Source of the DNA: Hyphomicrobiales bacterium
Lineage (GTDB): Bacteria > Pseudomonadota > Alphaproteobacteria > Rhizobiales > TMED25
NCBI GenBank assembly: GCA_029245795.1
Contig: JAQWOP010000003.1
Location: 101,235-165,234 of the forward strand
Length of the DNA: 64,000 nucleotides
Direction of reading: 5' to 3'
Made by a program: the position numbers and the translations under genes. Under the pieces are notes generated by a model. It saw nothing but the letters and a program-made list of their open reading frames with translations. It had not been told where the DNA came from and ran no database searches. Positions within the stretch are counted from its first letter, which is position 1. Each line of letters opens with the position of its first letter. Of this stretch, positions 5,076 through 48,880 are shown one piece after another.

Positions 5076-7825
<2,750 letters not shown>

Positions 7826-7841: not shown

Positions 7842-9395
7842 ATGAATAACAAAAAAGAAATAATTTTAATTGTAGATTTTGGTAGCCAATTGACTCAGCT
7901 AATTGCGCGAAGGGTGAGAGAGTGGGGCGTATATTCAGAGATACAGCCATTTAATAAAATATCCCAAGATATTAATAAATTAGAAATCCGCGGTATAATT
8001 TTCTCAGGCGGTCCACATAGTGTTATCGGAGTTGATGCGCCTTCAGCACCAAAATGGTTATTTGAGCTTAATGTGCCCATTCTCGGGATATGTTATGGAC
8101 AGCAAACGATAGTAAATCAACTTGGCGGTGAAGTCATTAATACAGGTAAAAGAGAGTATGGGAAATCAAACCTGACAATAATTGATGAATCACCACTTTT
8201 TAAAAATATATGGGAAAAAGGCAATGACTATCAAGTTTGGATGAGCCATGGAGACTCTGTCAATAAACTGCCAAATGATTTTAGAATAATAGCAAAAACA
8301 GAAAATGCTCCATATGCAGCTATTAGTAGTGAGTCAAAAAAATATTACGGTCTTCAATTTCATCCAGAGGTATACCATACAATAAATGGGAATGTTATTA
8401 TAAAAAATTTCTTAGATATATGTGGTGTTAGTTATGATTGGACCATGTCTAGTTTTTTTGAAGTACAAAAATCTCAAATTCAAACAAAAGTTAAAGATGG
8501 TAAGGTGATTTGTGGATTATCTGGAGGCGTCGATTCATCTGTTGTTGCTGTTTTATTACATAAGATTATAGGTCAACAATTAACGTGTATATATATTGAT
8601 AATGGATTGATGAGAAAGAATGAATCCGAGCAGGTAGTGAGCTTATTTAAAAAACATTATAATATTCCTCTTGTACATGTAGATGCATCAGAAATTTTCC
8701 TTAAAAAATTATCTAACATCTCTGACCCTGAGCAAAAAAGAAAAATTATAGGAGCCGTTTTTATTGATGTTTTTGAAGAAGAGGCATCCAAAATTGGTAA
8801 TGTAGATTTTTTAGCACAAGGGACGCTCTATCCTGATGTTATAGAAAGTGTAAGTTTTACGGGTGGGCCTTCGGTAACGATTAAGAGCCATCATAATGTA
8901 GGAGGGTTGCCTGAAAAAATGAACCTAAAGTTAGTTGAGCCCTTGAGGCAACTTTTCAAAGATGAGGTTAGATTGCTGGGCAAAGAACTTGGTCTTCCAG
9001 AATCTTTTATTTCTAGACATCCATTTCCAGGTCCTGGTCTAGCAATTCGCTGTCCTGGTGAAATAACAATGGAGAAATTAGAAATATTGAGAAATGCTGA
9101 TGAGATCTATATTGATGAGATAAAGAAAGCAGGCCTTTATAACGATATATGGCAGGCCTTTGCAGTTTTATTGCCAACCAGAACCGTTGGTGTTATGGGT
9201 GATGCAAGGACATACGAATATGTCTGTGCCCTAAGAGCAGTCACTTCTGTGGATGGTATGACAGCAGATATTTATCATTTTAAAACCGAGTTTTTGGCTT
9301 ATTTATCAAATAGGATAATTAACTCTGTAAAAGGTATTAACCGAGTTGTTTATGATGTTACCTCCAAGCCACCAGGGACAATTGAGTGGGAATAA
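7842..9395 (+). CDS. guaA: GMP synthase (glutamine-hydrolysing)
   Basis: Has a GATase domain ([12 protein letters not shown]), the ATP-PPase P-loop SGGVDSS, and the conserved C-terminus PPGTIEWE. The track ORF starts at TTG 7818. The ATG at 7842 lies 16 nt after the rsmB-like stop and is the more plausible start. Confidence 0.97.
9381..9395. repeat. Direct repeat copy 1 (last 15 nt of guaA, ATTGAGTGGGAATAA)
   Basis: Exact 15-mer identity with 10049..10063. Confidence 0.9.
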
Positions 9396-9413
9396 AAGTT
9401 TTATTTCAATGGC

Positions 9414-9442
9414 TTGTAAAAAGTTATTAAAGTAACTATATT
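9414..9442 (+). promoter_or_regulatory. Sigma70-like promoter candidate for the DUF1772 cassette
   Basis: TTGTAA, then a 17-nt spacer, then TATATT. It is followed by AAGGA (9451..9455) and the ATG at 9465. Confidence 0.4.
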
Positions 9443-9464
9443 GGAATTGCAAGGATAAATTAAA

Positions 9465-9959
9465 ATGGACATGTTGGATATCTCGTTAATCTTATCTATC
9501 CTATCTTGTAGTTTAGTCGGTGGGTTCATTTTTACATATGCAATTGTTGTTATGCCAGGCTTATCAAACCTTAATGATAGAGACTTTCTAAGAGCATTTC
9601 AGGTGACAGACGCCGTAATACAGAACAATCAACCGCTCTTCATGTTTACTTGGATAGGCTCTATTTTGTCTGTGTTAGCTACAATATTAGTTTCATTGGT
9701 AAGTATTGGGTTTGCAGAGGGTTGGTTAATAGCTTTAGTTGCTTTTGTTTATTTATTAGGTGTGCAAGGCATAACAGTGGCAATCCATATCCCCCTAAAT
9801 AACCATATTCAGAGTATTAAAATTGAAAATCTGAATGATGAGGCATTAGCTGATGAACGCTTAAAATTTGAAACAAAATGGAATTTCTTTAATTATATTC
9901 GAACAAGTATCGCCATTTCTGTTAGCGTGTTACTGCTTATAATTTTAACAATGCGATAA
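9465..9959 (+). CDS. Small 4-TM membrane protein, DUF1772 (anthrone-oxygenase-like) family candidate
   Basis: 164 aa with four hydrophobic segments. The motif MPGLSNLNDRDFLRAFQ resembles DUF1772 proteins. The family call is from memory only. Confidence 0.55.
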   Translation: MDMLDISLILSILSCSLVGGFIFTYAIVVMPGLSNLNDRDFLRAFQVTDAVIQNNQPLFMFTWIGSILSVLATILVSLVSIGFAEGWLIALVAFVYLLGVQGITVAIHIPLNNHIQSIKIENLNDEALADERLKFETKWNFFNYIRTSIAISVSVLLLIILTMR

Positions 9960-9985
9960 ATTAAACTTTCTGATAAATTAAAAAC

Positions 9986-10007
9986 TTACAAAGTAGTTAC
10001 AAAGTAT
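9986..10007. repeat. Tandem 11-nt repeat TTACAAAGTA(G/T) x2
   Basis: Read directly: TTACAAAGTA at 9986..9995 and TTACAAAGTA at 9997..10006. Confidence 0.8.
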
Positions 10008-10042
10008 TTTTAAATACCTGTATTTAAATAATAAATTAGGCT

Positions 10043-10063
10043 AGAACGATTGAGTGGGAATAA
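10043..10063 (+). repeat. guaA 3'-end remnant / direct repeat copy 2 (AGA ACG ATT GAG TGG GAA TAA = RTIEWE-stop)
   Basis: 18 of 21 nt are identical to guaA 9375..9395, and the last 15 nt are exact. It is in frame, preceded by a TAG at 10037..10039, and has no start codon. Confidence 0.85.
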
Positions 10064-10098
10064 TACAATAAAATCAATTATTAAAAAAGGATATAGAA

Positions 10099-11310
10099 GT
10101 GTCGGCACTCATAAAAAACGCACTTAATATAGCAGATCTTCGAGAGTTAGCTCGCAAGCGTCTGACGAAAGCACTTTTTGATTTTTGCGATAAGGGTAGT
10201 GAAGATCAGGTTAACATGCGTGCCAACCGGACAGCGCTCGACAACATCAAGCTAATGCCCCGCATGTTAAGGGATGTCTCAGGTCGGGATCCCGGAATCA
10301 CCTTATTTGGTAAAGAACATTCGCTGCCACTGATGATCGGGCCCACGGGCCCCGCTGGTTTTGTCTGGTACCGCGGGGAGACAGAGCTTGCCAAGGCGGC
10401 AGCAAAGGCAAATATTCCCTTCACGGTCGCCAGTACCTCCAACACACCTATGGAAGATATATATCAAAACGGTGGTGGCACCCAGTGGTATCAGCTTTAT
10501 GTTTGGCAGGACATCGAGGCTTCCTTAGTGACCGCCAAAAGAGCTCTAGATGCAGGATACGAGGCCCTCGTACTGACAGTTGACTCACCGGTCTACAACA
10601 ATCGGGAAATCGACACCCGGAACGGTCTTAAGTTTCCCCCCACCATCAGTGCCCGTACGGCCCTGGATGCTATGCTTCATCCCCGGTGGCTCTATGGTAC
10701 GCTAGCCAAATACTATCTTGCAGAGGGCCAGTTGCCAGCATTTTCAAATATTCATATTCCTGACCAGCAAAAGGCCAACGCCAAGAGCTATATGTCCGCC
10801 TCGACTACGGGCTTCCTGAACCGTAACGATACTCTGGACTGGGACTTCGTGAAACGGCTGAGAGATCTATGGCCCAAAAAACTCCTGATCAAATGTGTAC
10901 TACACCCTGAGGACGCGGCTGCGGCTGTGGCATGTGGGGTAGACGGTGTTTTTGTCTCTAATCATGCAGGCAATGTGAACGATTGCGCCATTACGGCATG
11001 GGACGCTCTACCTGCCATTTCAGATGCCGTCGGTGGGAAGCTCACCATCATCGCTGATACTGGCGTGCGACGCGGAAGTGATGTTCTAAAGGGGCTAGCC
11101 CTCGGCGCGGATGTTGTCGCAGTTGGCCGGGCAACACTCTATGGCGTGGCTGCCGCAGGCGAAGCAGGCGCCACTCGGGCGCTGGATATCTTGGAGGCGG
11201 AAATTCGCCGAACCATGGCGGTCATGGGTGTTAACCGTATTTCAGATATCACCCGAGACCATATTAGATTACCGACAGACTTACCTGTGTCTGGCAAAAG
11301 TCCACTTTAG
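10099..11310 (+). CDS. FMN-dependent alpha-hydroxy-acid dehydrogenase family protein (LldD / mandelate-dehydrogenase-like), compositionally foreign
   Basis: 403 aa with a GTG start, preceded by AAGGA. Family motifs WYQLYVW, TVDSPV..REIDTRNG, SNHAGNVND, ADTGVRRGSDVLKGLALGA and GRATLYG. GC is far above the flanks by eye, and codons such as CTG, GCC and CGG are used freely. Confidence 0.85.
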   Translation: MSALIKNALNIADLRELARKRLTKALFDFCDKGSEDQVNMRANRTALDNIKLMPRMLRDVSGRDPGITLFGKEHSLPLMIGPTGPAGFVWYRGETELAKAAAKANIPFTVASTSNTPMEDIYQNGGGTQWYQLYVWQDIEASLVTAKRALDAGYEALVLTVDSPVYNNREIDTRNGLKFPPTISARTALDAMLHPRWLYGTLAKYYLAEGQLPAFSNIHIPDQQKANAKSYMSASTTGFLNRNDTLDWDFVKRLRDLWPKKLLIKCVLHPEDAAAAVACGVDGVFVSNHAGNVNDCAITAWDALPAISDAVGGKLTIIADTGVRRGSDVLKGLALGADVVAVGRATLYGVAAAGEAGATRALDILEAEIRRTMAVMGVNRISDITRDHIRLPTDLPVSGKSPL

Positions 11311-11340
11311 AATTATTCGGCTTAATAAGTTTATTATGTA

Positions 11341-13125
11341 ATGCAAAAAACTGAAATACAGGCAGCTTGGAAGACAACGAAACGTGTATCTCCATTTATT
11401 TGGCCAGTTGGTGATAACGAGCTTCGTGCGCGTGTGGTGCTTGCCTTACTTGCATTAATTGGATCAAAAATAATTGCAATACTTGGTCCAATTTTGCAGG
11501 CATGGGCTGTAGATGATCTTGCCGGAAGTAATATCTCAGACTTTATTTTAGGAGCTATTGGGTTAACTGTTGCCTATGGTTTTGCAAGAATAATGACGAG
11601 TGGATTTCAACAGCTGCGTGATGCACTATTTGCCAAAGTCGCCCAGCGTGCATTACGTAGGTTAGCTCTTCAGACATTTCAGCATATTCACAAACTATCT
11701 ATGCGCTTCCATATAAATCGTAAAACAGGTGGATTGAGTCGAATCATCGAGAGAGGTGTTAAAGGAGTGGAGTTCCTTCTTCGTTATCTTGTTTTTTCAA
11801 CTGGCCCTCTTGCACTTGAGTTGATATTTATTAGTGCTGCAATTTTTTGGAAACTCCAAGATTGGCGTTATATCGCTATAATTTTTATCACTATTCTTGT
11901 CTATGTTTGGTTTACCTTTTCTGTTACAGAATGGCGAGTTAAATTACGTCGTAAGATGAATGAAGAAGATACAGACGCTAACCAAAAGGCTGTAGATAGT
12001 CTATTAAACTTTGAAACAGTAAAATATTTTAATGCAGAAGAAAGAGAAGCCTTACGCTACGATAAAGCAATGGCGGGCTATGAGGCAGCTGCACTTAAAA
12101 CTAGTTATTCTCTAGCTTTTCTTAACATTGGGCAAGCTGTTTTAGTTACCGCAGGTTTAGTTGGAGTTATGTTGTTAGCAGCGCTCGGTGTTCAGTCAGG
12201 TCAACTCACAGTTGGAGATTTTGTACTTGTAAATGCCTACATGATTCAAATTACAATACCATTAAATTTTTTAGGAACAGTCTATAGAGAAATAAGACAA
12301 GCGCTAGTGGATATGCGGCAAATGTTTGATTTGCTAGAAGAACCATCAGAAATCATTGATAAAGATGGAGCGAAAGTTCTTTCCGTATCCGATGGCTTAA
12401 TCTTATTTAGGGATGTACGATTTGCATATGAACCCGAGCGACCAATTTTACATGAGATAAATATTGATGTGAAAGTAGGAGAAAAAGTTGCAATCGTGGG
12501 GCCATCAGGGTCTGGGAAATCAACTATAGGAAGGCTTCTTTTTCGCTTTTATGATGTTAACGGAGGCGCGATATATATAGATGGACAAGACGTTAGGGAT
12601 GTAACACAAAAAAGCCTGCATCAGGCAATTGGGGTTGTGCCTCAGGATACGGTACTTTTTAACGATACAATATTTTATAATATAGCATATGGCTATGAAA
12701 ACGCTTCACAACCAGAAGTGATTCAAGCCGCTAAAGATGCGCAGATTCATGATTTTATAATGTCACTTCCCGCAGGGTATGACTCTCTAGTTGGAGAACG
12801 CGGTCTAAAGTTGTCTGGTGGTGAAAAGCAGCGAGTCGGTATTGCGCGTACTCTTTTAAAAAATCCACCTATTTTAATTCTTGATGAAGCAACAAGTGCT
12901 CTTGACAGTGAAACAGAACACGAAATTCAAGAAGCTCTTGAACTCGCTGGAGAAGGTCGTGCTGTGATAATAATTGCCCATCGATTATCAACAGTTTCCA
13001 ACGCTGATCGGATTGTTTTCCTTGAAAATGGACGGATAGTTGAAATGGGTAATCATGAACAGCTCATTAGAACGAAAGGGCGTTACAGTAGTTTGTGGTC
13101 TCTACAAAAGTCTGAACAAGTTTAA
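11341..13125 (+). CDS. ABC exporter, fused permease/ATPase, Atm1/HMT1-like
   Basis: 594 aa. Six-TM N-terminal half, Walker A GPSGSGKST, signature LSGGEKQR, Walker B ILILDEATSALD. Confidence 0.85.
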   Translation: MQKTEIQAAWKTTKRVSPFIWPVGDNELRARVVLALLALIGSKIIAILGPILQAWAVDDLAGSNISDFILGAIGLTVAYGFARIMTSGFQQLRDALFAKVAQRALRRLALQTFQHIHKLSMRFHINRKTGGLSRIIERGVKGVEFLLRYLVFSTGPLALELIFISAAIFWKLQDWRYIAIIFITILVYVWFTFSVTEWRVKLRRKMNEEDTDANQKAVDSLLNFETVKYFNAEEREALRYDKAMAGYEAAALKTSYSLAFLNIGQAVLVTAGLVGVMLLAALGVQSGQLTVGDFVLVNAYMIQITIPLNFLGTVYREIRQALVDMRQMFDLLEEPSEIIDKDGAKVLSVSDGLILFRDVRFAYEPERPILHEINIDVKVGEKVAIVGPSGSGKSTIGRLLFRFYDVNGGAIYIDGQDVRDVTQKSLHQAIGVVPQDTVLFNDTIFYNIAYGYENASQPEVIQAAKDAQIHDFIMSLPAGYDSLVGERGLKLSGGEKQRVGIARTLLKNPPILILDEATSALDSETEHEIQEALELAGEGRAVIIIAHRLSTVSNADRIVFLENGRIVEMGNHEQLIRTKGRYSSLWSLQKSEQV

Positions 13126-13217
13126 TGGAGTATTGTTTTCGGTTATAATTTTTTATTTTCCTACTTAAATTTTTTGTTCTACAGTGGTATAAATATTTTT
13201 TAGTAATAGTTACAAAT

Positions 13218-13424
13218 ATGAATGATAATATAAAAAAATTAGAGGAAATAACCTCATTTCTTCAAAATGAAGTATCGCAGATGAGTGATGTAATTTATAA
13301 TCAACAAAAAGATATTATCAATCTTAAAAGTGAAATTTCTAAGTTAAAAAAAGTAATTCTTGAGTTGGAAGATAACTTAGATTTAAACCTTAGCGATGGT
13401 AATCAAAAGCCTCCCCATTATTAG
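13218..13424 (+). CDS. SlyX-like coiled-coil protein
   Basis: 68 aa with a heptad-rich sequence. Its size and pattern resemble SlyX. A weak call. Confidence 0.5.
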   Translation: MNDNIKKLEEITSFLQNEVSQMSDVIYNQQKDIINLKSEISKLKKVILELEDNLDLNLSDGNQKPPHY

Positions 13425-13437
13425 TATTTAGGCAATC

Positions 13438-14619
13438 ATGAATCAAAAGTATGATGTTGTTATAGTAGGTGCTGGAGCTGCTGGTCTTATGAGTGCAATT
13501 GAGGCCGGGAAAAGAGGGAGGTCGGTACTTTTATTGGATCATTCAAAAAAAATTGGTGAAAAGATTAGAATATCTGGAGGTGGAAGATGCAACTTCACTA
13601 ACCTTTATACAAATCCAAGTAAATTTATTTCTCAAAATCCAAATTTTATGATTTCAGCATTAAATCAATACACTCAATATGATTTTATAGAATTAATAAA
13701 GAAATATGAAATTAAATTTCATGAAAAAAAACTTGGACAGCTCTTTTGCGATGAGAGTGCTCAGCAAATAATAGATATGCTTCTCTTGGAATGCAAAAAA
13801 TCAGAAGTAACTCTCAAAAAAGAAACTCATGTTTTGGACATTAGTAAAAAAGATGATTCATATATCACAAATATTGGCAAAGAAGTAATTTTATCTAATT
13901 CTTTAATTATAGCTTCAGGGGGGCTATCTATTCCGAAAATGGGGGCAACAAAGTTCGGTTATGATATAGCAAAAAAATTTGATATGAAAGTTGTTGAGAC
14001 CTTGCCAGCATTAGTACCTTTAACTTTTAGTGATAAATTACTTCTAAAATGCAAAGAACTTACAGGATTATCTTTGGACTCCATTATTTCATTAAATAAA
14101 AATTCTTTTGAAGAAGGGATGCTATTTACTCACAGAGGTTTAAGTGGCCCATCAATTCTTCAAATTTCATCTTACTGGAGATTGGGAAATGATATTAAAA
14201 TAAACCTATCACCGCATTTTGATATTTATCAATTCCTAATGAATAAAAAAGAAACAAATCCAAAACAAGATATTACTAAACTGATAGCAGAAGTGATCCC
14301 AAAGAGACTTTCAACTAGTATTTGCAGAGATAATTGTATTGGAGGGAATGTATCTGAGCTATCAAACAAATTATTACAAAAGCTAAGTAATTCGATTAAT
14401 AATTGGAGTGTTACGCCAACTGGATCTGAAGGATATAGAACTGCTGAAGTTACACTTGGAGGTATTGATACGAATGAACTTTCTTCTAAAACTATGATGT
14501 CAAAAAAGCATAATGGTTTATACTTTGTTGGCGAAGTGGTGGATGTTACAGGTCATCTTGGCGGCTATAACTTCCAGTGGGCTTGGTCATCAGGTTATGT
14601 TGCAGGAAAAAATGCCTAG
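13438..14619 (+). CDS. HI0933/BaiN-family NAD(P)/FAD-dependent oxidoreductase
   Basis: 393 aa. Motifs VVIVGAGAAGLM, ISGGGRCNFTN, and the C-terminal GEVVDVTGHLGGYNFQWAWSSG. Confidence 0.85.
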   Translation: MNQKYDVVIVGAGAAGLMSAIEAGKRGRSVLLLDHSKKIGEKIRISGGGRCNFTNLYTNPSKFISQNPNFMISALNQYTQYDFIELIKKYEIKFHEKKLGQLFCDESAQQIIDMLLLECKKSEVTLKKETHVLDISKKDDSYITNIGKEVILSNSLIIASGGLSIPKMGATKFGYDIAKKFDMKVVETLPALVPLTFSDKLLLKCKELTGLSLDSIISLNKNSFEEGMLFTHRGLSGPSILQISSYWRLGNDIKINLSPHFDIYQFLMNKKETNPKQDITKLIAEVIPKRLSTSICRDNCIGGNVSELSNKLLQKLSNSINNWSVTPTGSEGYRTAEVTLGGIDTNELSSKTMMSKKHNGLYFVGEVVDVTGHLGGYNFQWAWSSGYVAGKNA

Positions 14620-14706
14620 ATTATTAATTGCGAGTGGAAATATAAATAATTATTTTAATTTAGGTGTGTGTATATTATAATTACTATAAATTGGAAAAAG
14701 TAATTA

Positions 14707-14931
14707 ATGGCAAAAAAAAAAATTAAAAAACCTGTTAAAGGAACCCTTCCAGATAATATAGATCGAGCATGTCCACTGCCAGAATTACTAGATACTCTTT
14801 TAGACTATTACCGAAGTAAGCGTATTGATGAGGCTGTGGCTGCCTATAGCCAAGCGATAGCGTTGAAGCCTGACTATGCTGAAGCTCAAAACAACCTGGG
14901 TATCACGCTTCAGATGATGAAGAAGCCTTAA
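14707..14931 (+). pseudogene. Truncated single-TPR ORF, likely a remnant of a larger TPR protein
   Basis: 74 aa. One TPR-like unit (AYSQAIALKPDYAEAQNNLGITL) is cut short by a stop. GC is elevated relative to the flanks by eye. Confidence 0.4.
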
Positions 14932-14970
14932 GTATAAGAATATGAGTCATCATAGAAAAGCACTTATGTT

Positions 14971-16409: not shown

Positions 16410-16598
16410 ATGAATGATATAGAACGTAATCCAAGCAAAAATCCGTGTCTCTTTTGTAATTCAAAATTAGGGATTATATATGTTCAATCACACTATCAGT
16501 GCTTAAACTGCAAGCAAGTAATAGATCCATGTTGTGGTGGTGAGATTTGTGATGATTTTTCGGCAGAAATAAATGCTATTAACAAATATGAGAAATAG
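16410..16598 (+). CDS. Small cysteine-rich zinc-ribbon protein
   Basis: 62 aa. Two CxxC pairs (CLFC, CLNC) plus CCGGEIC. Confidence 0.45.
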   Translation: MNDIERNPSKNPCLFCNSKLGIIYVQSHYQCLNCKQVIDPCCGGEICDDFSAEINAINKYEK

Positions 16599-17316
16599 TG
16601 AATTTAACAAAACTATACAAGATCTTTTGAAAAGTGAGTATAGAAGAGTCCAATCCTTTAAAGATTATGATGGTTCAAAATTATGGCTAAAATCAATAGA
16701 AAAGTATAGCTTAAAACATATTTTGAAAGGTGATCCAAAGAAGGCTATCTTAAGGGAAATAAAGGCAGAATATGCTTTAAAGAGAATTGGTTTCCCATCC
16801 TCAGGAATAGTTTATCATAATCAAAAATATATAGTATTCAAAGATGCAGGAGGGACATTAGAAGATATATTCAGAGAAAAAAAATTCTCTTTAAAAATAA
16901 GAAAAGAAATTTTTCAAAAAGCGGGGGAGCTTTTTGGAATTCTTCATTCAAATAAATATGCACATGGTGGCTTAGCTCTTAGAGATATATGTTGGGATGG
17001 AAAGAATGTAACTTTTCTTGATTTTGAGAAATTTAGGGATACTCAATTTAATTATAAAAAGTTATCAATTGATTTCTATTTTTTTATTCACAGCTGGTTT
17101 AAATTATCCTCAGAATCTGGTCCAGAGCTTTTGGCATTTGTAGACAAGTATAAGAATTGTATTGATAAAATATTATGGCAAGAAGTTATTGGCTTGCCAA
17201 GAAGATATAATAAATTGAAAAATATAACTATAATTATAAATTCAAATAACAAAGATATAATTGCTTTTCAAAGAGCAATTACTTTCCTGAAGACTTTGAA
17301 TGAAGATAATAAATAA
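16573..17316 (+). CDS. Kdo-kinase / InaA-like protein-kinase-fold protein with a non-canonical catalytic loop
   Basis: 247 aa. HSNKYAHGGLALRDICW...VTFLDFEKF aligns by eye with the H-x-D-L-x-x-x-N ... DFD/DFG segments of KdkA/InaA-type kinases. There is an alternative ATG at 16588. Confidence 0.5.
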   Translation: MLLTNMRNSEFNKTIQDLLKSEYRRVQSFKDYDGSKLWLKSIEKYSLKHILKGDPKKAILREIKAEYALKRIGFPSSGIVYHNQKYIVFKDAGGTLEDIFREKKFSLKIRKEIFQKAGELFGILHSNKYAHGGLALRDICWDGKNVTFLDFEKFRDTQFNYKKLSIDFYFFIHSWFKLSSESGPELLAFVDKYKNCIDKILWQEVIGLPRRYNKLKNITIIINSNNKDIIAFQRAITFLKTLNEDNK

Positions 17317-24317: not shown

Positions 24318-25472
24318 ATGTTTAAAAGATTAGAAAATTGTTATAATACAAATGATTTTAGGTCATTAGCAAAACAAAACCTTCCATCTCCAATATTTCA
24401 CTATATTGATGGAGCTGCTGATGATGAAAAAACTTATTATCATAATACGCATTCATTCGATAAATGTGATCTTGTTCCAAATGTTTTAAATCCAGTAAAG
24501 AATATTGATATCTCTGTTGAAATACTTGGTAAAAAAATTGATTTACCGATATTCCTATCACCAACTGCACTTCAAAGGTTATTTCATTACGATGGCGAAA
24601 GAGCTGTGGGAGAGGCTGCTGAAGAATTTAATACTTATTTTGGGATATCATCACTTGCTACAGTTGGAATTGAGGAAATAGGAAAGAAATTCAATTGTCC
24701 AAAAATGTTCCAATTGTATGTGCACAAAGATAAATCATTGAATAATGATATGTTACAAAAATGTATAGAATATAACTTTGATTCTTTGGCTATTACTGTT
24801 GACACAATTGTTGGGGGTAATAGAGAAAGAGATCTGAGGACAGGGTTTACTTCTCCCCCAAGACTTACAATGTCAAGCCTGCTTAGTTTTGCTTTATCAC
24901 CAAGATGGAGTATGAATTATCTAGCTAGAGAAAAATTTTCATTACCACAACTAGACTCACATCTAAGCGAAGGGACTAAAATAGCAATGTCAGTTGGAGA
25001 TTATTTTACTAAAATGTTGGATCAGGAGCTAAGCTGGAAAAAAATAGAAGATATTAAGAAAAATTGGTCAAAACCGTTGTGTCTTAAGGGTATTATGTCG
25101 GTTGATGATGCCAAGAAAGCAATTGATGTAGGTGCAAGTGCAATAATGATTTCAAATCACGGAGGAAGACAGTTGGATGGATCAAGATCTCCATTTGATC
25201 AACTTGAGGAAATAGTAGATGCGGTATCCGGTCAAATTGAAATTATTTGTGATGGTGGGATAAGAAGAGGAACTCATGTGTTAAAGGCACTTTCACTGGG
25301 TGCAAACGCATGCTCAGGTGGAAGATTTTATCTTTACTCACTTGCAGGAGCTGGATCTTCTGGTGTAAAAAGAGCGTTACGAATGATGAATGATGAGATA
25401 GTTCGTGATATGAAACTAATGGGATGCAATTCAATTTCAGAATTAAGTAAAAAAAATATAAGATACAAATGA
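24318..25472 (+). CDS. lldD: FMN-dependent alpha-hydroxy-acid dehydrogenase (L-lactate dehydrogenase-like), native composition
   Basis: 384 aa. Canonical motifs FQLYVHKD, TVDTIVGGNRERD, SNHGGRQLDG, CDGGIRRGTHVLKALSLGA. Confidence 0.88.
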   Translation: MFKRLENCYNTNDFRSLAKQNLPSPIFHYIDGAADDEKTYYHNTHSFDKCDLVPNVLNPVKNIDISVEILGKKIDLPIFLSPTALQRLFHYDGERAVGEAAEEFNTYFGISSLATVGIEEIGKKFNCPKMFQLYVHKDKSLNNDMLQKCIEYNFDSLAITVDTIVGGNRERDLRTGFTSPPRLTMSSLLSFALSPRWSMNYLAREKFSLPQLDSHLSEGTKIAMSVGDYFTKMLDQELSWKKIEDIKKNWSKPLCLKGIMSVDDAKKAIDVGASAIMISNHGGRQLDGSRSPFDQLEEIVDAVSGQIEIICDGGIRRGTHVLKALSLGANACSGGRFYLYSLAGAGSSGVKRALRMMNDEIVRDMKLMGCNSISELSKKNIRYK

Positions 25473-44791: not shown

Positions 44792-45797
44792 TATTTGACA
44801 CCATTAACTTTGCAGTAATTATTGATTGAATAAGACTTTGTGGATCAGCTCTCCCTGTTCCCACTATTTCATAAGCTGTTCCATGGTCAGGAGATGTCCT
44901 GATAATGTTGAGTCCAAGAGTAACATTGACAGCAGAAAAAGGAGATATTGTTTTAATTGGGATAAGAGCTTGATCATGATACATACAAATTGAAACATCA
45001 AAATTCTGCAATTTTTCTTTATTAAATAGACTATCTGCTGGTAAGGGTCCGAGTATTCGGATAGATTTTTTTTTCAACTCCATAATTGCCGGCTCTATTA
45101 TTTCAATTTCTTCCATACCAATCAGTCCTCCATCACCAGCGTGCGGATTAAGTCCAGTCACTACAATTCTTGGATTTGAAATATTAAAATATCTTTTAAG
45201 ATCCCTATTCACAATGTTTATAGTATTTACGATTAAGTCTTTAGATATTATTTTTGATATTTTATCTACGGGGATATGTCTTGTTAAAGGAACTACCTTT
45301 AGTACATCACTTGTTAAAAGCATAACTGGGATTTTTCCTTGGTCTAAAAATGATAATAATTCGGTCTGCCCACTATATTTTTTACCGAGGTAATTAAGAG
45401 ATTTTTTGTTAACGGGATTGGTCACAATTGCTGATATTTTATTTTTTAATAACTTTTGATAAGCAATTAAGATTGATTCAACTATAGATTCATCATTTTT
45501 TTTATCAAATTTCCCAGGTTCTTCTTTAATGATGGGTATGTCATATACTGGCAAAGCTCCATCTAAATTATTTATAAATGGAATATCTATATCAGTTATT
45601 TTTTTTGTTTCTAACTTAAGATTTAGCAATTTTGCCCTTCGATGGAGCAGTTCTTCATTACCAAAATAAATAAATTTAGGAATTTTTGATTCCTTTCTTT
45701 TATTCCAGGAAAGGATAGTAATATCTGCTGAAATACCAGCAGGATCGCCCATTGTTATTCCAATTGGCAAATCTTGATTATCGATTTTTAAATTCAA
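44772..45797 (-). CDS. pdxA: 4-hydroxythreonine-4-phosphate dehydrogenase
   Basis: 341 aa. Motifs GDPAGI, GLNPHAG, MYHDQ and TSPDHGTA. Confidence 0.93.
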   Translation of the reverse strand: MNLKIDNQDLPIGITMGDPAGISADITILSWNKRKESKIPKFIYFGNEELLHRRAKLLNLKLETKKITDIDIPFINNLDGALPVYDIPIIKEEPGKFDKKNDESIVESILIAYQKLLKNKISAIVTNPVNKKSLNYLGKKYSGQTELLSFLDQGKIPVMLLTSDVLKVVPLTRHIPVDKISKIISKDLIVNTINIVNRDLKRYFNISNPRIVVTGLNPHAGDGGLIGMEEIEIIEPAIMELKKKSIRILGPLPADSLFNKEKLQNFDVSICMYHDQALIPIKTISPFSAVNVTLGLNIIRTSPDHGTAYEIVGTGRADPQSLIQSIITAKLMVSNSANKNS

Positions 45798-46689
45798 TTG
45801 AAGAATCCTGTTTTATGTCACGCAATATTTTTACTGAGTAAAGATTAAGTTGTTCTGATACTAGAATATTCTCTATTGCATTATTTGCTAATGATTGTTT
45901 TGGTGTGCAGTTAATATAAAGTTTTATTTGTTTCTTGCTTGCTTGAGGAGGTAAAAGAAAATTGTTTAAGTTAAAAAGTATTAAGCTTTTTAAAGGTTCT
46001 TCAATTTCAGAAATCGATATATCTATTTTATCTTTTATAACTATATTAGGTACTTCTTTATATAAAAAAAGGTTTTGAGAGCAGCTTTGAAAATTATCTT
46101 CAATATTCTTGAGCGTGAATAGCGATTCTTTTGGTTCTAAACCTTCGATATTTATAGTTAAAATTTGGATATGGAATAACTCTTTTGAAAGAATATTATC
46201 TCTATATTGATTGATGTCCTCCAAAGTTACATTTGCTAATCTTCTATATTTTCTTCTTATATAATCATTCCATTGAAGATAAGATCTTCGCTGGTTAATT
46301 ATAGTAATTGGATCTATATCAGTTCCTTCTAATTCTTGAGATAATCCCTCATAGCTAATTCCTTGCGCTTTTAATGAGATATCTAGGCTTGAAATAACTT
46401 CATTATCTGTATAGTCAGATATTCCATATTCCCTTGCTTTATCGAGCATTAATGCTTCGTCAACTAGCTGTTTGAGGGCTTCTTTTGGGAGAGTATCTTT
46501 TTGTGCATCAGGGTTTCTGAACTCCAAATATAAAGAACGATCTTTAACATCAGATAAAGTTATAGGTATGCCGTCTACTAGAACTATTACTTTTGAAATT
46601 ATTTCAGATTTTACTGAGTTATTTGTAAGAAGGATTAGAGATAATATAAAAATTATAATCTGATACTTATAGTTAGATTCATTATTCAT
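45778..46689 (-). CDS. SurA-like periplasmic chaperone (SurA N-terminal domain; no clear parvulin domain)
   Basis: 303 aa with a signal peptide. SurA_N-like VLVDGIPITLSDV...LKQLVDEALMLDKAREYGI. Sits in the conserved lptD-surA-pdxA position. Confidence 0.65.
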   Translation of the reverse strand: MNNESNYKYQIIIFILSLILLTNNSVKSEIISKVIVLVDGIPITLSDVKDRSLYLEFRNPDAQKDTLPKEALKQLVDEALMLDKAREYGISDYTDNEVISSLDISLKAQGISYEGLSQELEGTDIDPITIINQRRSYLQWNDYIRRKYRRLANVTLEDINQYRDNILSKELFHIQILTINIEGLEPKESLFTLKNIEDNFQSCSQNLFLYKEVPNIVIKDKIDISISEIEEPLKSLILFNLNNFLLPPQASKKQIKLYINCTPKQSLANNAIENILVSEQLNLYSVKILRDIKQDSSIEFKNR

Positions 46690-46699
46690 TGCTTCGATT

Positions 46700-48880
46700 T
46701 TACTGGCTTGACGCTGTTTTTAACTCAAAGTTTAATAATATAGACTTATCTTTCTTTATATCTCTATCTGTAAATAAGTTTTCTCTATAAATAATATCAA
46801 AAGATAAACATTCATCATCAAATCTAAGCCCAACTTGGTTATTTACAAAATTACTTGATTCTAAATTATAAACACCTTTTGAAATCATAGACCAATCTTT
46901 TGTAAGCCCAAGTTCAAGAAAGCCAGATATCTCTTCTAAATCCACATCGTTATCAGCATCGCCATCATCATTTAGCCAATTTGCATCAGCCTTTATTTCT
47001 GTGTAATTTAAACCAATATTTAAACTATCTCTATGCATGAAGTTCATATTTAGCTCATTAAATTGGTTTTTCTTAAATGACCCATCAAATCTTGTTTTAT
47101 AGTCTACTAAAAGAGTTTTATTAAGATCATAGGATAAGGAGCTTACAATATCTGAGTGATAATTATTAGTTCCTGAATATTTCTTTCCACTAAATGTATT
47201 ATCCCCGTCAATATGGAAAGACTTTCCAAGTGAGGCTTTAAAAAGTCCTCCAACATTATCTTGTAAATTATAATTTAAACCAAGAGACATTTTATTCCCA
47301 GAGTCAATCTTATCATGTCCATAAGAACGATTTGACTCAAATAAATTTAAGGAATTAAAGTTTAAAGTTTGTGAGTCTTCATTTAATAAATTGCTATCCT
47401 TATCTTCTTTCCCAATATATGAAATGCCTAATTTAGGTTCAATTATTTGCTTTCCGATAGAGCTATTTTTAAAAAAGGGCCAGGATGTTTTTATCGTTGC
47501 TTCAGGTGTAAATCTTGAGTGATTAGTAAATTCATTGTCAGATTCATCATAAGTACTAAAATAATCACCTTTCAAACTAATATATGGCTCAAAAATTATA
47601 CCATTATTCATAATTTTTCTATCTTCCCATGATATTTCAGTTGTCAGTCTGGTTTGATCGTCACCGCTGTTTCTATGTAAACTAGATATTTGTGTATCTA
47701 AATTTAATTCATTTAAAAGTGGCAGATTGCTAATTTTGTATTCATAATCAAACTGAGGTAGTAATTTGGCTTGGCGAGTTTCAGTTTCACTTAGAAGGTT
47801 ATGGTAACTTATTGCCTGAAGGTTGAAATAATTTTGGTTATTTATCCCGGTTAAAAAAAGATTTGAATTATACTTTGTTCTATCATCTAAACCATATTTT
47901 CTCATGTAAGTATCATCACTTGCAAAAGTTGCATTCCAACCCCAATTAATATTATCACTTAAAGGTAAGAGTGCATTAGTTTTTAGACCAGCTCTAAACC
48001 GTTCATTTCCTGGTGCAATATCTGTTGGGTTTGCTTGGTAAATAAAGCTTGGATTAAAAGTTAGCAAACCACCATCATTATTTATCTTTCTGTATTCTAT
48101 ATCGAATAAGGGGCCTTGTTTAGATGTTATGAAGGGTGTCACTGTTAGATCGCTTATTTCATCTAATACATATAAGTATGGTATTTTAACTGAGTGGCCG
48201 TAGAAATTTGAGAATGAATAAGTTGGAACTAAGTAACCTGATTGACGTTTGACTGATAAATCAGGGTAACTAAAATAAGGAAGTTTTAGGATAGTCTTAT
48301 CCAGCAACTTAAACTTTATATTCTTAAAAACCACTTTTTTATTTAGTTCATCATGTGTGACGGTATCTGCTTCAAATTCCCATGTATAGGGGCATTCTTG
48401 ACCATCTTTTATTCCATTGCAAAAGCTATAGCCTGCATTTGTAAATACATTTTTGTTTCCAAAATCAACTTCACCACTTTTAGCTCTTATTTTTGTTCCA
48501 TCAGCAAGGATTATTTTTGCACTTTCTATAAACCCCTGCTTTAATTCATTGGAAAGTACAATTCTATCAGCATTTATTTTAATTTTATCTTCTTCAGTCA
48601 TTGTCACATTACCAATGGCAATAACCTGATCGTTATCTTGGATGTAAGTTATCTTATTTGCTTCGACAATATAGGATTTATAGAACAATTTTGCATTACC
48701 CTGCGCCGTGATGTCATTACCATTATCATCATAAGATAAATTATCTGCTTCAAAATAAATGGATGGATATGTTCCACCATCATTTACTTCTTGAGCTTGT
48801 AAATTTTTGTTAATAGAAAGAGAAAACAAAAAAATTGTCACTAAAATTAATAAGTTATTTTTATTTATTATATTCAACAT
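46700..48880 (-). CDS. lptD: LPS-assembly outer-membrane protein LptD
   Basis: 726 aa. Signal peptide, an OstA-like N-terminal domain, and a large beta-barrel region. Synteny after lptF-lptG. Confidence 0.9.
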   Translation of the reverse strand: MLNIINKNNLLILVTIFLFSLSINKNLQAQEVNDGGTYPSIYFEADNLSYDDNGNDITAQGNAKLFYKSYIVEANKITYIQDNDQVIAIGNVTMTEEDKIKINADRIVLSNELKQGFIESAKIILADGTKIRAKSGEVDFGNKNVFTNAGYSFCNGIKDGQECPYTWEFEADTVTHDELNKKVVFKNIKFKLLDKTILKLPYFSYPDLSVKRQSGYLVPTYSFSNFYGHSVKIPYLYVLDEISDLTVTPFITSKQGPLFDIEYRKINNDGGLLTFNPSFIYQANPTDIAPGNERFRAGLKTNALLPLSDNINWGWNATFASDDTYMRKYGLDDRTKYNSNLFLTGINNQNYFNLQAISYHNLLSETETRQAKLLPQFDYEYKISNLPLLNELNLDTQISSLHRNSGDDQTRLTTEISWEDRKIMNNGIIFEPYISLKGDYFSTYDESDNEFTNHSRFTPEATIKTSWPFFKNSSIGKQIIEPKLGISYIGKEDKDSNLLNEDSQTLNFNSLNLFESNRSYGHDKIDSGNKMSLGLNYNLQDNVGGLFKASLGKSFHIDGDNTFSGKKYSGTNNYHSDIVSSLSYDLNKTLLVDYKTRFDGSFKKNQFNELNMNFMHRDSLNIGLNYTEIKADANWLNDDGDADNDVDLEEISGFLELGLTKDWSMISKGVYNLESSNFVNNQVGLRFDDECLSFDIIYRENLFTDRDIKKDKSILLNFELKTASSQ

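Follow-up and report, generated by a model that had tools for sequence, protein, structure and literature searches.

Cis-mobilisable elements (CIMEs), described for the integrative and conjugative elements (ICEs) of Streptococcus, are flanked by attachment (att) sites, carry no recombination or transfer genes, depend on the cognate integrase, and accumulate in tandem at one chromosomal target site (attB), the 3′ end of a conserved gene. Here, a small cassette behind guaA, the gene for GMP synthase, is compared with these and other described systems. It lies in a 64,000-nucleotide stretch of contig JAQWOP010000003.1 of a Hyphomicrobiales bacterium (this whole stretch is referred to below as the window). 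An earlier reading of the sequence alone, the original prediction, held that the guaA 3′ end recurs downstream and that the two att-like copies bracket a recombinase-less unit with one gene of the DUF1772 family. It named GIsul2 as a precedent for guaA as a target, and the precedent is correctly cited: GIsul2 integrates in the 3′ end of guaA at an experimentally defined core, GAGTGGGA (PMC9376610). The GIsul2 integrase also acts in trans: in recA- cells it both excises and inserts the CR2-sul2 unit, which has no integrase of its own, and tandem insertions at a guaA island regenerate perfect cores (PMC9376610). Comparable repeats are known behind tRNA genes. In the additive islands at tRNA-Lys of ‘Ca. 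Methylopumilus’, the last ~20 nt of the anchor gene recur between units as small as ~330 bp (PMC10872708), and partial-tRNA repeats occur in Prochlorococcus islands and tycheposons (bioRxiv 10.1101/2020.12.28.424599).

The DNA of the window belongs to an uncultured marine alphaproteobacterium with a GC content of about 31% and represents a housekeeping region. Taken together, the evidence makes it probable (roughly 80%) that the cassette behind guaA is a recombinase-less small integrative unit, inserted site-specifically at the guaA end and mobilised in trans.

Precise insertion at the guaA terminus

In the window, guaA ends with GGG ACA ATT GAG TGG GAA TAA (9375-9395), and AGA ACG ATT GAG TGG GAA TAA follows at 10043-10063. 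Direct reading confirms the predicted repeat: the two 21-mers match at 18 of 21 nt, the final 15 exactly, and the second copy is in frame, has no start codon and is preceded, two codons upstream, by an in-frame TAG (10037-10039). The shared 15-mer, ATTGAGTGGGAATAA, is referred to below as the core. It is not a generic dispersed repeat, being present at exactly two sites on the two strands of the window (9381-9395 and 10049-10063); an ungapped search allowing up to three mismatches added one unrelated match, on the minus strand at 47181. From sequence composition, 3e-4 exact copies would be expected over both strands, in agreement with the rough figure of ~1e-4 given earlier, and 0 of 100 dinucleotide-preserving shuffles of the window contained even one. 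Two details needed adjustment. The predicted spacing of 654 bp is approximate, since 653 bp separate the 15-mers (668 bp from start to start) and 647 bp separate the 21-mers. As for a repeat longer than the 15-mer, only the AC before the core recurs, with identity around the left copy reaching 9378-9379, and the R T extension in the reading frame is by itself weak evidence. Elsewhere in the window, directly after the stop codon of an HI0933-like gene, ATTGCGAGTGGAAATATAA (14627-14645) resembles the core if two small indels are allowed, and it was not recovered by the ungapped search with up to three mismatches. It may be a decayed older core copy or a chance match.

Sites without the cassette are common in the same species. 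Contigs were picked by a GuaA protein search (99%–100% identical; P0001-P0003), and 13 of them are empty: six were read as DNA (L161-L165 and L324), two as gene tables (512 kb and 275 kb), and five are further “similar places.” All eight examined contigs have guaA, one core, a 35-nt spacer and the gene for an FMN-dependent dehydrogenase (FMN_dh), with no DUF1772 gene in between. Aligned with the window, L161-L165 consist of its left flank, a single core and its right flank, base for base, and L324 has a single core and the same 35-nt gap between guaA and FMN_dh. Nucleotide identity to the window is 99.4%–99.7% in guaA and 98.6%–99.7% in the dehydrogenase gene; these contigs belong to the same species. 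Thus, the window holds a precise 668-bp insertion (9396-10063, the cassette with one core). As the original prediction anticipated, guaA in these contigs runs directly into the sequence to the right of 10063. The arrangement is polymorphic rather than fixed in all relatives, with the cassette carried by one of 14 conspecific contigs, the window alone (13:1 empty to occupied). In both states guaA is intact, with the TIEWE-stop end (at 9395 in the occupied site).

Other contigs bear on the same region. L325 (at 2898 of 2911), L331, L333 and L334, metagenome contigs of this clade, stop within a few bases of the guaA stop codon, as an assembler would at a polymorphic junction. In a relative with 83% identity (Tara contig L166/L167), TauE and SOUL genes lie directly behind guaA (L166 9612-9653 compared with window 10064-14970), and five genes of the window have no counterpart: those for FMN_dh, an ATM1-like ABC transporter, SlyX, an HI0933-like flavoprotein and a small TPR protein. 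Variation behind guaA thus also exists on a larger scale. No clean core repeats were found at the boundaries of this five-gene difference.

How the exchange occurs can be read from hybrid cores in a sister species. Its guaA is ~80% identical to that of the window, all of its contigs share an identical GuaA protein (P0255), and its gene order is that of the window (molybdopterin dehydrogenase gene, ribBA, ftsJ, guaB, rsmB, guaA). The empty attB of L332 reads ..GGCACA ATCGAGTGGGAATGA TATAATAAAAACAATAG.., with TAT after the core. In the occupied contigs (L327-L330 and L335), the left junction (attL) reads ATCGAGTGGGAATAA TACAATAAAAACAATAA.., with TAC after the core, and the right junction (attR) reads ..GTGTACT ATTGAGTGGGAATGA TATAATAAAAACAATAG.., with TAT after the core. 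The occupied cores are reciprocal hybrids: ATC..TGA in the empty site, as against ATC..TAA plus ATT..TGA in the occupied one. The left mismatch (C/T) keeps its chromosomal form at attL, while the right mismatches (A/G in the stop codon and C/T after it) keep theirs at attR. Therefore, two distinct partner sites exchanged strands inside GAGTGGGAAT, an interval that contains GAGTGGGA. Target-site duplication is excluded because it would give two identical copies. The incoming site of the sister species also mimics ~20 nt past the stop codon, which is the probable reason that a CAATAAAATCAAT-like motif comes after the core at native guaA ends and some cassette 5′ ends alike. Related CAATAAAATCAAT-type sequence lies behind guaA in L166, L168, L083, L327/L332 and the AT-rich contigs L179/L200/L211.

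Spread, arrays and a shared module

The cassette occurs in distantly related hosts. At E <= 1e-5, a search gave 3378 homologues of the DUF1772 protein; the best 120 of these are 82%–95% identical and come nearly all from marine metagenomes. Many of the homologue contigs are 550-700 bp long, which is close to cassette size and fits a unit found in many contexts. In every case with available context, the gene lies just behind guaA. Exact database look-ups with the window's GuaA (read from a TTG start) and DUF1772 proteins gave no match. At the nucleotide level, the cassette is 92% identical over 668 nt in a lineage with the gene order lipA-MTTB-guaA (L314-L323; host GC ~50%, GuaA 60% identical in amino acids) and 92% identical in a metagenome-assembled genome (MAG) labelled Paracoccaceae (L178; GC ~41%, GuaA 60.5%). 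It is 85% identical in a lineage with the order ftsJ-guaB-guaA (L168-L177; GC ~36%, GuaA 62%) and 76% identical, over the ORF only, in the sister species (L326-L330 and L335; GC ~38%, GuaA 80%). Hence, cassette similarity ranks opposite to guaA similarity. In L314, the cassette has a GC content of 30.5%, as against 51.4% in the guaA before it and 49.3% in the DNA behind it. When the window is aligned with L168, homology starts at the left core and stops at the right core. Since flanks are only ~66% identical, homologous recombination cannot explain the targeting. No other copy is more than 92% identical to the window cassette, which forms a variant of its own.

The original prediction had set the guaA hotspot in a streamlined, AT-rich lineage. 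The hotspot holds, but the restriction to AT-rich hosts does not, since a genome of 50% GC has the cassette in fixed form as well. In that lineage it was present in all of at least 10 contigs, so it looks locked in place.

Cargo other than DUF1772 lies between the same cores in other lineages, as the original prediction proposed to check. One to three small cassettes stand behind guaA per lineage, closed by core copies and co-oriented, with variable order and content. For example, in L178 the guaA core is followed by a DUF6552 gene, a core with one mismatch, a 46-aa ORF, a core with three mismatches and the DUF1772 gene. L310/L311 have a 213-aa membrane protein gene between the guaA core and GTTGAATGGGAATAA, followed by DUF1772, and L306 has small ORFs, an exact core and DUF1772. 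In L096 (27% GC), a GNAT acetyltransferase gene lies between ATAGAGTGGGAATGA and ATTGAGTGGGAATGA, flanking cores that are non-identical hybrids, as in L327. L083 (30% GC, a 468-kb contig) carries a 381-nt unit, and in L168 the core of guaA itself and the core that opens the cassette are 41 nt apart. L326 has the DUF1772 cassette and then a second unit with a TatD-like ORF of 357 aa. This extra 1.7-kb unit (L326 9210-11080) duplicates the module described below, the core and ~185 nt downstream. A tRNA gene in it was considered and rejected, because ARAGORN found none; only a tRNA-like 3′ fragment, GGCCCCGGAGGAGGGATTCGAACCCCC, can be made out by eye in the minus-strand sense. The fragment may be left over from a different attachment site or from unequal recombination.

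How often a guaA end recurs was measured in a background set of 160 unrelated guaA loci, from relatives of at most 65% identity, each searched with its own terminal 15-mer at up to two mismatches. The 15-mer recurred downstream on the same strand in five of the 160, upstream in one and on the opposite strand in one. Among the five downstream recurrences, L094 and L095 are the same short non-coding case, and the one in L157 was rejected as a cassette, since it is a tandem guaA paralogue.

The ~90 nt before the closing core are related behind unrelated cargos, as judged by alignment. The module has variants, one common to the window, L168, L083 and L314 and another to L096, L327 and L326. What stays constant is a tandem 11-bp direct repeat, (A/G)(C/G)TTACAAAG(T/C) twice, 63-69 nt before the core, and it accompanies GNAT, DUF6552, TatD-like, small-ORF and DUF1772 cargo alike. 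In L311, a different 11-mer, CTACTTATGCA, occupies this position, also in two copies. The geometry downstream of guaA can be summarised as two 11-bp repeats, N40-45 (a spacer of about 42 nt) and ATYGARTGGGAATRA. In 3.35 Mb of DNA, the 11-bp motif was found only in modules and always on the guaA strand, with the exception of three contigs retrieved by the motif itself. A search with nhmmer using the module matched only the window, L083 and L168-L177. Arm-type sites of heterobivalent tyrosine integrases, as in the attachment site (attP) of the lambda type, look like this, with tandem repeats set at a constant distance from the core. By this analogy, the 11-bp repeats are likely candidates for arm-type binding sites of a recombinase or an accessory protein. 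Folded as a single strand, the module is no better than its shuffles (z = 0.76).

Larger elements use the same core, as the original prediction would have it. Many IMG/VR proviruses of ~40 kb end at the guaA core. In L179 (66-80), L200, L211 and L214, which are IMG/VR contigs of 28%–31% GC, tailed-prophage genes start right after it (amidase, GH108-like, baseplate and tape measure genes), with the integrase end lying outside the contigs. Therefore, temperate phages use this attB in such AT-rich marine bacteria.

Features of the locus and its surroundings

The features of the occupied site are listed in the table.

Table. Features at the guaA end of the window, with the basis of each assignment
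Feature	Position	Strand	Basis or remark
guaA, glutamine-hydrolysing GMP synthase, target gene	7842..9395	+	Pfam GATase and GMP_synt_C
Left core copy (attL), ATTGAGTGGGAATAA, last four guaA codons and stop	9381..9395	+	Direct reading
Inserted cassette, 653 bp of unique sequence	9396..10048	+	Missing from conspecific contigs
Cassette 5′ leader: TTGTAA-17-TATATT (9414-9442) and AAGGA Shine-Dalgarno sequence (9451-9455)	9414..9455	+	
Cargo gene, DUF1772/Anthrone_oxy membrane protein, 164 aa	9465..9959	+	Pfam PF08592, E = 3.9e-12
Cassette 3′ att-like module, candidate P arm, 89 bp	9960..10048	+	Alignments with other-cargo cassettes
Tandem 11-bp direct repeat, ACTTACAAAGT / AGTTACAAAGT	9984..10005	+	65 nt before right core
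Short palindrome within module, TTTAAATAC-CT-GTATTTAAA	10009..10028	+	Direct reading
Right core copy (attR), ATTGAGTGGGAATAA, after cassette-derived AGAACG	10049..10063	+	Direct reading
Ancestral guaA-downstream spacer (TACAATAAAATCAAT...), B′ side of target	10064..10098	+	Matches empty sites
FMN-dependent dehydrogenase gene, right neighbour, outside cassette	10099..11310	+	Pfam PF01070, E = 1e-120

The guaA product is 100% identical to a 517-aa database protein, P0001, and the gene most likely starts, as in that protein, at the ATG rather than at TTG 7818 of the ORF list; read from the TTG, the ORF would overlap the end of rsmB. Named GuaA relatives at 80% identity come from marine MAGs (Tara and other) called “Rhodobiaceae bacterium” or “Alphaproteobacteria bacterium.” Both 15-mers of the window include GAGTGGGA, the core recombination motif of GIsul2 (PMC9376610).

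Between the two cores, the original prediction saw only a promoter-like element, a Shine-Dalgarno sequence and one small membrane-protein gene. The gene and the Shine-Dalgarno sequence stand. The cargo gene is the sole ORF there, its family PF08592 is Anthrone_oxy (the former DUF1772), and the protein has four hydrophobic segments by hydropathy. The promoter call at 9414-9442 was rejected, because the consensus match is no better than the scan's own chance control, so the leader can be treated as a candidate promoter only. The leader sequence ...AAGGATAAAATAAAATG is kept in the cassette copies of L168, L178 and L314, and the module palindrome is preserved in L168 through paired one-base changes. 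The spacer is identical to the 35 nt behind guaA in the empty-site contigs.

The FMN_dh gene was considered as part of the cassette event and rejected, since all empty-site contigs and the sister species have it. It has 53% GC (GC3 0.53), compared with 31%–39% GC (GC3 0.21-0.26) for its neighbours, and looks like an older horizontal acquisition. The orthologue in the sister species (L327) is 89% identical in amino acids and has 44% GC. A second, AT-rich FMN-dependent dehydrogenase paralogue (384 aa, 24318-25472) is 31% identical to the GC-rich copy. Two ORFs of the window, 16573-17316 (247 aa) and 45778-46689 (303 aa), have no Pfam match at E <= 1e-5, and no tRNA genes were found in the window.

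Mechanism, alternatives and relation to known systems

What mechanism would account for these observations? The unit is made up of a leader, one DUF1772 gene, the att-like module of 89 bp and a single stretch of ~15-18 bp that mimics the guaA terminus. It would enter the chromosome as a circle whose core recombines, conservatively and site-specifically, with the identical last codons of guaA; with a crossover inside GAGTGGGAAT, guaA would be rebuilt at attL and the second core left at attR. The circle junction would read ..GGCTAGAACG-ATTGAGTGGGAATAA-AAGTTTTATTTC.., also given as ..AAATTAGGCTAGAACG-ATTGAGTGGGAATAA-AAGTTTTATTTCAATGG.. Because the cassette encodes no recombinase, the enzyme must come in trans. 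The most likely candidate would be the tyrosine integrase of an element with guaA as its attB, whether a temperate phage, a satellite or an island of the GIsul2 kind, and the 11-bp repeats 65 nt from the core would bind that integrase as arm-type sites. Repeated insertion at the same core would build arrays, giving a guaA-anchored additive island in several marine alphaproteobacterial lineages. Transfer between cells might occur by co-integration into the att site of a phage or island, in the manner of CIME accretion and mobilisation, although this step is speculative.

Several observations weigh against this mechanism. No recombinase or integrase was found in the window, where the gene tables of the first ~17.5 kb were read and 27 ORFs, covering about half of those at 19-64 kb, were compared with Pfam; nor did the gene tables of ~50 related contigs list any Pfam integrase family within 5-8 kb on each side. 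Neither a circular attP junction nor a free cassette was observed. The module, the extended attB and the DUF1772 gene were not found in IMG/VR or the GenBank phages: scans of the viral collections with the arm motif, a module variant, the extended attB and the DUF1772 protein gave five irrelevant matches or none, and blastn of the cassette against GenBank phages gave no match. In L314 the right core is missing, and the module runs into GC-rich host DNA (6560-6600). The duplicated segment of L326 runs ~185 nt past the core, so homologous or unequal recombination also shapes the arrays. The two cores of the window itself are identical, and the proof from hybrid cores comes from the sister species only. 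Lastly, direction cannot be read from the sequence, since insertion in the window and excision elsewhere are the same reaction and are not distinguishable.

The original prediction left two readings side by side, a minimal cassette mobilised in trans and a decayed island. Large prophages do integrate at the guaA core, the right core is decayed in L306 as in L314, and CIMEs are regarded as deletion products of integrative elements, all of which would suit an immobile stump of a larger guaA island or prophage whose integrase and other genes were deleted. We consider such a stump unlikely. Independent decay would not give identical 653-bp boundaries in the window, L168, L178 and L314, nor one-gene units of 250-950 bp that share the module geometry; moreover, the insertion is recent, being present in one of 14 conspecific contigs, and the cassette holds no pseudogene debris. 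The minimal cassette is favoured by the same boundaries in at least five lineages and by one att-like module behind unrelated cargos. Quite unlikely, too, is a cassette of this same kind that is moved by a host Xer-like recombinase, as for IMEX and the pdif modules of Acinetobacter, rather than by a phage or island integrase. Recombinase-less modules moved by Xer are known, no linked recombinase was found here, and an inverted symmetry, ATTGA ... TCAAT ~25 nt apart over the core and spacer on both sides, resembles a two-arm core site. However, no dif-type XerD arm was apparent on comparison with the dif consensus, tandem arm-type repeats are typical of heterobivalent integrases and not of Xer, and a dedicated integrase family has been proven to target the core at the guaA terminus, GAGTGGGA (PMC9376610).

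It is also conceivable, if distinctly improbable, that the cassette is ancestral and disappeared from the other strains when fortuitous 15-bp repeats gave rise to RecA-dependent or slippage deletions, with no site-specific system at all. A chance copy of the guaA terminus exactly at the boundary is expected at only ~3e-4, and copies of the guaA end delimit the unit in at least five lineages, with guaA genes that share only 60%–64% identity. The 92% identity of the cassette in a 50%-GC genome, the module common to different cargos, and the hybrid cores, which require two distinct partner sites, speak against loss as well. In its favour, 15-bp direct repeats can mediate deletion, the 13:1 ratio alone gives no direction, and the longer duplication in L326 shows that homology-driven events occur here. 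Far less probable than any of these is the insertion of a transposon-like element that duplicated 15 bp of its target, or a chimera produced during assembly at the shared 15-mer, even though transposition also leaves flanking direct repeats and the source is probably a metagenome or single-cell assembly. A transposon or insertion sequence was rejected, as there are no terminal inverted repeats and no transposase, and the non-identical hybrid cores of L327/L332 and L096 are incompatible with a target-site duplication. As for a chimera, 15 nt is shorter than assembler k-mers, the window cassette is not a close copy of any other (at most 92%), and the occupied state is found in long contigs and in independent assemblies of single cells. 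The recombinase-less integrative unit mobilised in trans thus remains the preferred explanation.

A broader reading can be put forward only tentatively, as less likely than not. The guaA end in marine Alphaproteobacteria may be the dock of a previously undescribed, integron-like gene-capture system. Its cassettes would be recombinase-less and mostly carry one gene, each with a dedicated att module (tandem 11-bp arm repeat, ~42-nt spacer and guaA-terminus core) in specificity variants (TTACAAAG and ACTTATGCA), and a dedicated, unlinked recombinase would exchange them across orders and GC contents.

What are the implications of such a locus? To our knowledge, genome-streamlined ocean bacteria are largely without plasmids, transposons and integrons. 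First, the guaA end provides a concrete route of gene gain and loss in these bacteria, for which the route is otherwise an open question. Tiny cassettes dock at the invariant terminus of an essential gene; within one population they vary in presence, and they are shared between alphaproteobacteria of 31% and 50% GC. Second, the locus offers a defined att site, a candidate protein-binding repeat and an assay of empty against occupied sites. Third, the polymorphic cassette site explains why assemblies of these taxa break exactly at guaA. If the recombinase is found, the system could also be used for site-specific integration in marine bacteria that are difficult to manipulate.

How does the locus compare with known systems? 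Among its closest precedents are GIsul2 and CR2-sul2. GIsul2 also integrates in the guaA 3′ end with the gene rebuilt, its core GAGTGGGA lies within the crossover interval proposed here, and CR2-sul2 is an integrase-less, att-bounded unit that the GIsul2 integrase moves in trans (PMC9376610). Insertion in the guaA codons, core repeats, an empty attB and hybrid attL/attR are all found here, whereas an adjoining tyrosine integrase is not. GIsul2 is a 15-kb gamma-proteobacterial island with int, alpA and replication/transfer genes; in contrast, the units here are 0.25-1.7 kb, carry one gene, have no integrase nearby and belong to marine Alphaproteobacteria. The same ..IEWE-stop end of GMP synthase is the attB of SaPIbov1-type islands and of guaA-targeting prophages, and the att core of SaPIbov1 is the reverse complement of ATCGAGTGGGAATAATTA. 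Those elements, however, are 15-40 kb long and have integrase, replication and packaging genes. Nor is the cassette a tycheposon or a satellite resembling the phage-inducible chromosomal islands (PICI), as it has only one cargo gene and no recombinase or replication/packaging module of its own, and the window has no tRNA gene.

Like CIMEs, the cassette is flanked by att sites and lacks recombination and transfer genes. CIMEs are ICE deletion derivatives of several kb; in the cassette, no sign of a larger parent element and no island-gene remnants were found, and the identical unit boundaries in several lineages argue against independent decay. The common module behind many one-gene cargos is closer to a cassette system. 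Indeed, the units resemble integron cassettes in being small, mostly one-gene and recombinase-less, each ending in a recombination site, and in stacking in one orientation, with the same cassette found at different array positions beside different neighbours. They differ in that their sites are direct copies of a gene terminus and that they apparently carry their own leader/promoter. An attC-like hairpin was rejected, given the fold of the module and a conserved feature that is a tandem direct repeat, and no intI-attI-Pc platform was found beside the array, where rsmB and guaA lie upstream and the gene tables list no integrase.

The tRNA-anchored additive islands of genome-streamlined plankton are a further close precedent. 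In both, the 3′ end of the anchor recurs between units, content varies among close strains, and new arrivals push older ones outward. In contrast to those islands, the anchor here is a protein-coding gene, guaA, the cassette is common across orders and GC contents, the att module is conserved with fixed geometry, and no tyrosine recombinase lies within the island. The literature on tycheposons, marine satellites and “Pelagibacter, resolved” makes no mention of guaA-anchored cassettes. As such, guaA as an attB site, cis-mobilisable att-flanked elements and additive islands are already known. What seem to be new are a protein-coding anchor in marine Alphaproteobacteria, minimal one-gene units, a module of fixed geometry behind many cargos, and one cassette in hosts that range from 31% to 50% GC.

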